Source of the DNA: a virus
Lineage: Duplodnaviria; Heunggongvirae; Uroviricota; Caudoviricetes
Virus record (IMG/VR): IMGVR_UViG_2563366960_000002
Reading direction: 5' to 3' (one strand)
DNA: 64,000 nucleotides
A model generated the notes under the pieces. That model was not told the DNA's origin and made no database searches. It was given only the letters and a program-made list of their open reading frames with translations. Numbering within the stretch: the first letter of the stretch is position 1; every line of letters starts with the position of its first letter. Positions 31,313 through 31,847 of the stretch are shown here, one piece after another. The translations under genes and the position numbers were made by a program.

Positions 31313-31501
31313 TCACTCTCCTTTAGTGCGCAAGTGGTTTTTCCAGCGGTTTTGCGCCGCGCTGGGCTTTTTGCAAAAACCACAATCCATCATCCCGTAA
31401 TATTTCATCAACCCCATCCGTCGGTTGCTGAGTCTCACCCACTGCCAGACGCCAGGAGCGTTTCTACGAACTAACAGAATCTTTGCTTTACGGTTTTTCA
31501 T
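31313..31501 (-). CDS. Small basic protein (paralog 2 of a tandem pair)
   Basis: 62 aa; N-terminus MKNRKAKILLVRR shared with the upstream ORF; contains CGFC. Confidence 0.45.
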   Translation of the reverse strand: MKNRKAKILLVRRNAPGVWQWVRLSNRRMGLMKYYGMMDCGFCKKPSAAQNRWKNHLRTKGE

Positions 31502-31674
31502 CTTACAGCGTACCCTTTCTTCCGCCTGTTCTGTGACGCAGTAGGCTTACGCTTTGCGGCAAAAGCCACCTGACCAAATGGATGGAGTACCGCTATCTTA
31601 TGGTTGCTAATAACCAGCTCCACCACACGCACAGGTCGCTGTAAAAAAAGTCGTTTTGCCTTACGGTTTTTCAT
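31498..31674 (-). CDS. Small basic protein (paralog 1)
   Basis: 58 aa; MKNRKAKRLFLQR...; ATGA overlap with neighbours on both sides. Confidence 0.4.
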   Translation of the reverse strand: MKNRKAKRLFLQRPVRVVELVISNHKIAVLHPFGQVAFAAKRKPTASQNRRKKGYAVR

Positions 31675-31847
31675 CGCTTTGCTCTCCTGCGTCTCTTTGC
31701 TGCTCGTCGTGCCGCTGCAATACCGGTATGGCGGCGCTTTGGTGCCGGGATGATGTTGTCAGCCATCAGGACATACGGCTTTGCAATTAGCGCAGAAGCC
31801 CAAAAACGAGTCGGGTACGGTAACAAGCCGATACATGCCACACGCAT
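31671..31847 (-). CDS. Small protein with poly-Arg/Lys C-terminus
   Basis: 58 aa; ends AAARRAAKRRRRAKR; ATG overlaps the upstream stop (TAATG). Confidence 0.4.
   Translation of the reverse strand: MRVACIGLLPYPTRFWASALIAKPYVLMADNIIPAPKRRHTGIAAARRAAKRRRRAKR

Follow-up and report, generated by a model that had tools for sequence, protein, structure and literature searches.

[quoted passage not shown] The exo-xis proteins (Orf60a, Orf63, Orf61, Orf73, Ea8.5 and Orf55) are small products of the early pL operon, and their genes lie between those for recombination and xis. The same holds for the three micro-ORFs considered here (ORF1, ORF2 and ORF3), which in phage 933W are located in the same operon as the exo-xis genes, just after the ea22 homolog. 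However, they show no sequence similarity to the exo-xis proteins, their products are far more basic, and they belong to the variable genes that follow ea22, outside of the conserved exo-xis block. In 933W, the exo-xis genes are separate genes upstream of the ea22 homolog. Membership in the Orf60a, Orf61, Orf63/DUF1382 or Orf73/TraR-DksA families was rejected, as there was no Pfam or NCBIfam match at E-values up to 1. The published work on the exo-xis region does not treat these ORFs.

A likeness also exists to the lambdoid N proteins. These RNA-binding peptides with an arginine-rich motif are short, Arg/Lys-rich products of the early operon as well, but no sequence relationship with ORF1-3 was detected and a boxB-like target was not identified.

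At the level of protein families, ORF1 corresponds without difference to PHROG 1380 (WP_000797279.1, "hypothetical protein"; approximately 62 amino acids, from enterobacterial temperate phages), with which it shares the length, three motifs and the genomic setting. ORF2 is a diverged subtype of the same family, in which SNHK replaces SNRR and the tail reads KGYAVR. ORF3 shares the tail TGIAAARRAAK(K/R)RRRAKR with PHROG 13831 (WP_001261538.1, "hypothetical protein") and does not differ from it. Both PHROGs are labelled "unknown function". Since RefSeq and PHROGs already list the proteins as hypothetical families, they represent nothing new in kind, and the finding of two narrow, catalogued phage protein families is sound but ordinary. 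What the present analysis adds is coding evidence for each of the ORFs, also for the unannotated ORF2, a family signature, the linkage to the ORF3 family, an account of the duplication by cassette recombination, and the prediction of an orphan fold.

Our overall explanation comprises genuine genes, two families, a portable module, recombination and a putative nucleic-acid-binding role, and we put its probability as a whole at roughly 70%, but that of the nucleic-acid-binding role well below one half. According to this explanation, three genuine small genes would belong to the early-left (pL-type) transcript of an Stx2-converting lambdoid prophage, their stop/start overlaps allowing them to be translated one after another, and their cassettes would be gained, lost and shuffled through exchange in the conserved gene ends.

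The micro-ORFs in the early-left operon

The window, i.e. the whole stretch of 64,000 nucleotides that was analysed (IMG/VR record IMGVR_UViG_2563366960_000002), is an Stx2-converting lambdoid prophage. The 2 kb around the micro-ORFs share 99.8-99.9% identity with the E. coli O145:H28 RM12581/RM13514 chromosome and, with the same values, with the Stx2c-converting phages Stx2_5044 and Stx2_EH1904. In the annotated reference genome, all three micro-ORFs reside in the early-left operon of the prophage on the minus strand, where the order is repressor region, kil, erf, an IS3-interrupted anti-RecBCD gene, DUF2737 and several hypothetical genes, followed by two Ea22-like genes, ORF3, ORF2, ORF1, P4, DUF551/EaA-like genes, a xis-like HTH gene and int. 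The early operon proposed in the first-pass annotation is the pL-type operon of the prophage, in which the micro-ORFs lie between the Ea22-like pair and the xis/int end. Neither a sigma-70-like promoter nor an intrinsic terminator was predicted on the minus strand of positions 30500-32700. A search of Rfam with permissive E-values returned no family match, and an RNA element does not account for the region. In the order of the minus strand, the features are as follows (overlaps and the TAATG by direct reading):

31847..32599, minus strand: Ea22-like gene (PF13935), upstream neighbour, second of two tandem copies
31851..31860, minus strand: Shine-Dalgarno-like AAGGAGGTGA, 3 nt (GTA) 5' of the ORF3 start, within the C-terminal codons of the Ea22-like gene
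31845..31849, minus strand: TAATG stop/start overlap of the upstream Ea22-like gene stop and the ORF3 start
31671..31847, minus strand: ORF3, CDS of 58 amino acids, pI 12.0; PHROG 13831; RefSeq WP_001261538.1
31671-31674, minus strand: ATGA overlap of ORF3 and ORF2
31655..31674, minus strand: ORF2 5' end ATGAAAAACCGTAAGGCAAA, direct repeat of the ORF1 5' end; contains the ATGA overlap with ORF3
31498..31674, minus strand: ORF2, CDS of 58 amino acids, pI 12.0; diverged ORF1 paralog; PHROG 1380; KGYAVR tail
31498-31501, minus strand: ATGA overlap of ORF2 and ORF1
31482..31501, minus strand: ORF1 5' end ATGAAAAACCGTAAAGCAAA, second copy of the repeat; contains the ATGA overlap with ORF2
31313..31501, minus strand: ORF1, CDS of 62 amino acids, pI 11.3; PHROG 1380; RTKGE tail; RefSeq WP_000797279.1
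31309..31323, minus strand: junction of the ORF1 stop and the next gene, AAGGAGAGTGATATG, GAG-TGA-t-ATG
30796..31311, minus strand: P4, downstream neighbour, ORF of 171 amino acids, PHROG 631/9263

The three tandem micro-genes seen in the first-pass annotation are indeed three back-to-back ORFs that fill positions 31313-31847, all on the minus strand. Only one of them had passed the ORF cutoff, and ORF1 alone exceeds 60 amino acids. The description as very basic proteins of 58-62 amino acids is borne out by pI values of 12.0, 12.0 and 11.3 and by net charges of +14 to +15. As for the proposed ATGA and TAATG links, ATGA is found at both the ORF3/ORF2 and the ORF2/ORF1 junction, whereas TAATG does not occur between the micro-genes. 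Related phages have TAGTG instead of TAATG, i.e. a GTG start for ORF3. When the 535 nt were shuffled with preservation of the dinucleotides, a strand coverage of at least 95% by ORFs of at least 50 amino acids was reached in 7 of 5000 shuffles; the three-ORF arrangement exceeds chance.

The Shine-Dalgarno sequence is strong for ORF3 (AAGGAGGTGA), AGGAGA for ORF2 and weak for ORF1, and ORF1 probably relies on coupling via its ATGA overlap. The last codons of ORF1 (KGE and the stop) also serve as the Shine-Dalgarno site for the gene that follows. ORF1 and ORF2 are 37% identical over the full length, and their common MKNRKAK is encoded by nearly identical DNA. The N-terminal pattern MKNRKAK.L.L..R given beforehand is exact for MKNRKAK, which is followed by L9 and R13 in both proteins, but slightly off in its longer form. 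ORF3 consists of a Pro-rich, moderately hydrophobic N-terminal half and a conserved basic tail (TGIAAARRAAKRRRRAKR), and its C-terminus RRAAKRRRRAKR is the poly-Arg/Lys tail that had been pointed out for the third protein. A small membrane (type I-like) toxin was considered for ORF3 and rejected, as no TM segment is predicted (the top 19-residue Kyte-Doolittle mean is 1.24), the hydrophobic stretch is broken by Pro, Arg and Lys, and neither an antisense RNA nor an Rfam family turned up.

Some observations concern the neighbouring genes. P4 (30796-31311, minus strand) is intact, with its own Shine-Dalgarno sequence and ATG and a full-length match to PHROG 631/9263; its 5' part is a "frameshifted" pseudogene according to PGAP in RM12581, and it is split in another strain. 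A PD-(D/E)xK-like motif (PDA...IEAK) can be recognized in P4 by eye, for which Pfam, NCBIfam, PADLOC and PDB give no supporting match. For recombination, this Stx2 prophage has a P22-type module (erf, anti-RecBCD, kil; RM12581 2596000-2604300) and not lambda exo/bet/gam. For this reason, the term exo-xis region is only an analogy in this prophage. In the region at about 34820-36950 of the window (minus strand), an IS3-family element with ORFs at 35112-35576 and 35649-36911 splits the anti-RecBCD (abc-like) gene of the early operon in the reference genome, which has a second IS3 copy nearer to the repressor region. These insertions could have a polar effect on downstream genes including the micro-genes.

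Two narrow protein families

Against PHROG 1380, residues 1-62 of ORF1 align with positions 1-62 of the 62 profile positions (E 1e-40) and residues 1-58 of ORF2 with positions 1-60 of 62 (E 6.5e-23); residues 1-58 of ORF3 align with positions 1-58 of the 58 positions of PHROG 13831 (E 1.1e-41). A remote relationship of ORF3 to ORF1 and ORF2 was rejected with an hhalign probability of 0.06%. Judged by these comparisons, ORF1 and ORF2 are paralogs in one narrow family of approximately 60 amino acids, to which ORF3 is unrelated.

The MKNRKAK family, of which ORF1 represents the commonest type, has an N-terminal motif M-K-N-R-K-A-K-x-L, a central motif S-N-R/H-R/K and a C-terminal motif S-A-A-Q-N-R, with a divergent, beta-rich middle lying between the conserved motifs. 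From 25-37 diverse members the signature N3 R4 A6 L9 ... S25 N26 (R/H) ... Q50 N51 R52 was derived, and its positions N3 R4 A6 L9, S25 N26 and Q50 N51 R52 are complete in ORF1 as well as in ORF2, the central motif of the latter being SNHK. The invariant residues of the ORF3 family are T41, G42, A44, R48, A50 and R53, and alleles of PHROG 13831 with a deletion of seven codons (933W) and with a frameshifted tail exist.

Homologs of ORF1 come solely from Escherichia and Salmonella, and a profile search among 1.84 billion cluster representatives yielded only 49 relatives. The most distant of these retain the three motifs and are surrounded by small genes in metagenomic phages. The 535-nt module was matched in 602 of 5426 complete E. 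coli genomes (approximately 11%), on chromosomes and P1-like plasmids, and 126 complete E. coli genomes possess the full triple ORF3-ORF2-ORF1. Among 50,697 phage records, 144 contain a family member; these are Stx1 and Stx2 phages (933W and VT2-Sakai included), phiV10-like and P1-like phages and Sashavirus. Besides 933W and VT2-Sakai, many other Stx1- and Stx2-converting phages and P1-like phage-plasmids are carriers of the module.

None of the three proteins and none of 25 diverse family members had a match in Pfam, NCBIfam or PADLOC, and a sequence search of the PDB with both family profiles revealed nothing credible. A C2H2 zinc finger (zf-C2H2_jaz, PF12171) was rejected, since the score was 13.3 bits with a cut-off of 22.6, C40 and C43 are not conserved and the second His is missing. 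DUF7279 was rejected as well, being a weak match below the cut-off for one distant member only.

The AlphaFold2 model of ORF1, calculated from 37 sequences, predicts an alpha-beta3-alpha arrangement fairly confidently (mean pLDDT 82.7, pTM 0.52) with the elements H4-12, E20-23, E28-32, E38-43 and H48-60. In the model, the conserved motifs map to helix 1, to the turn joining the first and second strands and to the beginning of helix 2, and the sheet corresponds to the variable part. Foldseek detected no structural relative of the model. The double-stranded RNA-binding domain (dsRBD) and HicA have an alpha-beta-beta-beta-alpha topology. With such dsRBD-like or HicA-like mini-domains the ORF1 model has the order of elements, the size of about 60 residues and the basic character in common. 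Membership in the dsRBD, which was raised from the order of elements, was rejected, as there is neither a sequence-profile match nor a significant structural superposition. A HicA toxin was rejected likewise: Pfam and PADLOC gave no match, a HicA-like phage protein was obtained at a Foldseek E-value of 0.57 only, and none of the variable downstream genes is HicB-like.

Evidence for protein-coding genes

We compared approximately 240 related loci, 80 each from IMG/VR searches with the ORF1 protein, with the 20-nt 5' DNA motif and with a divergent ORF3 homolog, and additionally took in annotated phage records. The search with the 5' motif gave 95 distinct DNA alleles and 77 distinct family proteins. 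Nearly all of the approximately 300 family copies have a length of 58-65 codons and seven are truncated. Among the family proteins, the central 35 residues fall into about nine sharply different types.

In the proposed frame, pN/pS is 0.39 for ORF1-like genes, 0.35 for ORF2-like genes and 0.54 for type D, in each case the lowest value of the six frames. The other frames mostly have values of about 0.8-1.4 (0.65-3.45 for type D), and the antisense frame that shares the third positions is also low for the family genes. For ORF3, pN/pS is 0.45 in frame, 0.40 in the antisense frame sharing third positions and 0.92-1.37 in the other four, and this applies to both halves of the gene. Values of 0.35-0.55 indicate only a moderate constraint. 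In the codon alignment, invariant residues are encoded by different codons (AGC, AGT and TCA for Ser26, AAC and AAT for Asn27, CGC, AGG and AGA for Arg60), and all four Gly codons are used at the conserved Gly38. The conserved residues of ORF3 also vary at third positions, and its start codon is ATG or GTG. Between types G and H (both ORF2-like), the C-terminal motif has a pS of 0.72 and a pN of 0.06. Because of the frame-specific pN/pS, the synonymous codon variation and the retention of frame and length, all three ORFs, ORF2 included, are protein-coding and under moderate purifying selection. A frame test on RTKGE tails was left out of account, as its filter had introduced a bias. Conservation of the reading frames in related elements was a point on which the first-pass annotation had made its proposal depend; the frames are kept not only in Stx phages but also in phiV10-like, P1-like and Sasha-like phages, and hundreds of related loci bear signs of purifying selection on them. 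Direct evidence of translation was not found: neither the RefSeq accessions (in the literature) nor the peptides (in the supplement of an EHEC Riboseq study with uninduced cultures) were found.

One has to consider that the locus encodes no functional protein at all and serves as a mosaic linker or coupling spacer, the ends of which are kept for recombination and for loading of ribosomes. ORF2 was not called by PGAP, the original annotations of 933W and VT2-Sakai chose other frames, the DNA of the gene ends is identical between types with diverged middles, the final codons provide the Shine-Dalgarno sequence of the next gene, and frameshift alleles of ORF3 are frequent, all of which a spacer would readily accommodate. 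However, a spacer would not explain why purifying selection acts specifically on the proposed frame in each of the ORFs, why Ser and Arg switch between their six-fold codon classes at invariant positions, or why frame and length are maintained through about 50% amino acid divergence. The same three motifs in distant relatives from unrelated metagenomic phages and a confidently predicted AlphaFold2 fold, supported by the family alignment, also argue against it, so that we regard a mere spacer as very unlikely.

An origin of the micro-ORFs from the break-up of a larger gene, either a frameshifted fusion of ORF1 and P4 of 230 amino acids (PHROG 9263) or orf8 of VT2-Sakai, seems hardly credible to us. 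Such a reading draws on the alignment of PHROG 9263 (230 amino acids) with ORF1 at 1-61 and with P4 at 62-230, on the label "frameshifted" that PGAP gives to the P4 start, and on long ORFs in the ORF1 frame of 933W and Sakai. In contrast, none of the approximately 300 copies is fused to the downstream gene, the Met-Lys-Asn-Arg-Lys start is conserved, the stop follows after 58-65 codons in almost all copies, and P4 with its 171 amino acids, own Shine-Dalgarno sequence and ATG is intact. The genes 3' of the module vary (P4, a Cys-rich ORF of 71 amino acids, DUF4014 and others), with at least five unrelated kinds following ORF1-type genes, and the long ORFs cross ORF3 in a frame without selection.

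The closest genomes leave the stretch of ORF2 unannotated (PGAP). This missing annotation and several database ORFs in the wrong frame can now be corrected. Deposited annotations at such loci often have a wrong frame or start, as in 933W, VT2-Sakai and a phiV10-like phage. The N-terminal extension of L0068 of 933W (2771-3058 of locus L083) is the +1 frame of the conserved 3' end of ORF1, orf8 of VT2-Sakai (1374-1841 of locus L206) is a long ORF that crosses ORF3 out of frame, and in the phiV10-like O157 typing phage 10 (2772-3044 of locus L084) a read-through of 90 amino acids is annotated instead of the first family copy.

In frameshifted ORF3 homologs (P0126 and P0130), the poly-Arg/Lys tail is replaced by an acidic tail ending in AAIPVLHRHDEQQRNAGEQNDEKP, and the stop lies inside the 5' end of the next gene. 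This type of allele is common, with P0130 occurring on about 95 contigs, and therefore the basic tail of ORF3 may be dispensable. Either the tail is dispensable or these alleles represent a decaying lineage.

Cassette exchange and possible function

The related loci show the arrangements ORF3>ORF2>ORF1 (about half), ORF3>ORF1 and ORF1 alone. ORF2 is exactly missing from 933W and VT2-Sakai (ORF3>ORF1) and is an optional cassette. Of the 80 loci selected by ORF3, 77 have a family gene directly downstream, the converse linkage being less strict; ORF3 plus one or two family copies constitute a portable module. In the tandem pairs that were compared, the two types differ (G+A in the window, B+D in the phiV10-like phage).

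The last ten or so codons of the family genes depend on the downstream neighbour. A tail ...QNRRKKGYAVR before the stop, found on type A or B bodies too, has a further family copy behind it in 50 of 57 cases, and the tail ...QNRWKNHLRTKGE before the stop is followed by other genes in all of 101 cases, where AAAGGAGAG acts as the Shine-Dalgarno site of the gene behind it. Codons 1-10 and all codons from 45 onwards have the same DNA sequence in types A and B, and dS is 0.89 in between. The conservation of the ends is thus in part one of DNA (recombination, embedded ribosome-binding site) and not of protein. Some members are chimeric and combine a type A or B body with the ORF2-type KGYAVR tail (2674-3044 of locus L084 and other alleles), which shows that recombination breakpoints lie inside the conserved SAAQNR motif. 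Taken together, the identical ends, the tracking of tail and neighbour and the diverged middles show that the repeated 5' end serves as a recombination joint as well as encoding a conserved protein motif. Since recombination at the ends changes the copy number, it accounts for the duplicated 5' sequence as well as for the exact absence of ORF2 in 933W-type phages, and the ORF1 5' end (31482..31501) is a likely point of recombination for gain or loss of ORF2.

The first-pass annotation had called the peptides nucleic-acid-binding-like, a description for which their charge is the only basis. The charge of +14 to +15, the Asn-Arg dyads and the small alpha-beta3-alpha model lead us to infer such binding as well; as Pfam, NCBIfam, PADLOC, PDB, Rfam and the structural searches gave no match, this is a matter of inference only. 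Further clues to the function are the basic terminal helices, the strict linkage to the Arg/Lys-tailed ORF3 and the accessory position in the early operon. By analogy to the N proteins, the ORF3 tail and the terminal helices of ORF1 and ORF2 could plausibly bind RNA. As to the function, we tentatively favour non-essential accessory DNA- or RNA-binding proteins that act early after infection or induction and tune phage or host gene expression.

The main alternative, which is rather unlikely, is that the proteins bind and inhibit host factors in the course of anti-defence or host takeover, as proposed in the first-pass annotation, with the variable beta-sheet as target surface and two types widening the range. 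Within phages of one host genus, the middle occurs in at least nine clearly distinct types, and each of the compared tandem pairs combines differing types (G+A; B+D). A module present on unrelated phage types and P1-like plasmids would also suit such inhibitors, and so would an accessory, variable position in the early operon, which is typical of these factors (PMC8614690). However, dN/dS of the variable middle is 0.2-0.7 without detectable positive selection, which indicates an old divergence under constraint. Known DNA-mimic anti-restriction proteins are acidic, in contrast to the +14 to +15 of the micro-proteins, PADLOC (on the defence side) and the other family collections gave no match, and a conserved partner or defence gene is absent nearby.

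Returning to nucleic-acid binding, a bolder proposal, which we hold to be improbable, is that the MKNRKAK family represents an unrecognised alpha-beta3-alpha mini-domain with three conserved Asn-Arg dyads and without a PDB relative that binds a specific nucleic acid or a host machine together with ORF3, and that Shiga-toxin phages would readjust early host takeover, the lysis-lysogeny decision or counter-defence by swapping and stacking divergent cassettes at the gene ends.

Without a phenotype, the micro-genes amount to one more pair of small phage ORFan families. The target is now defined by two families, a signature and a fairly confident predicted model of ORF1, and the natural occurrence of phages with and without ORF2 offers a clear genetic handle. 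Accessory genes of this early region shift prophage induction and, because of that, the production of Shiga toxin.

The genes directly upstream of the module deserve a short remark. Two different Ea22-like genes (31847-32599 and 32596-33258, minus strand) are arranged in tandem with an ATGA overlap. The copy number and type of Ea22-like genes differ widely among the related loci (one to four hits), which suggests a cassette-style shuffling like that of the micro-genes.
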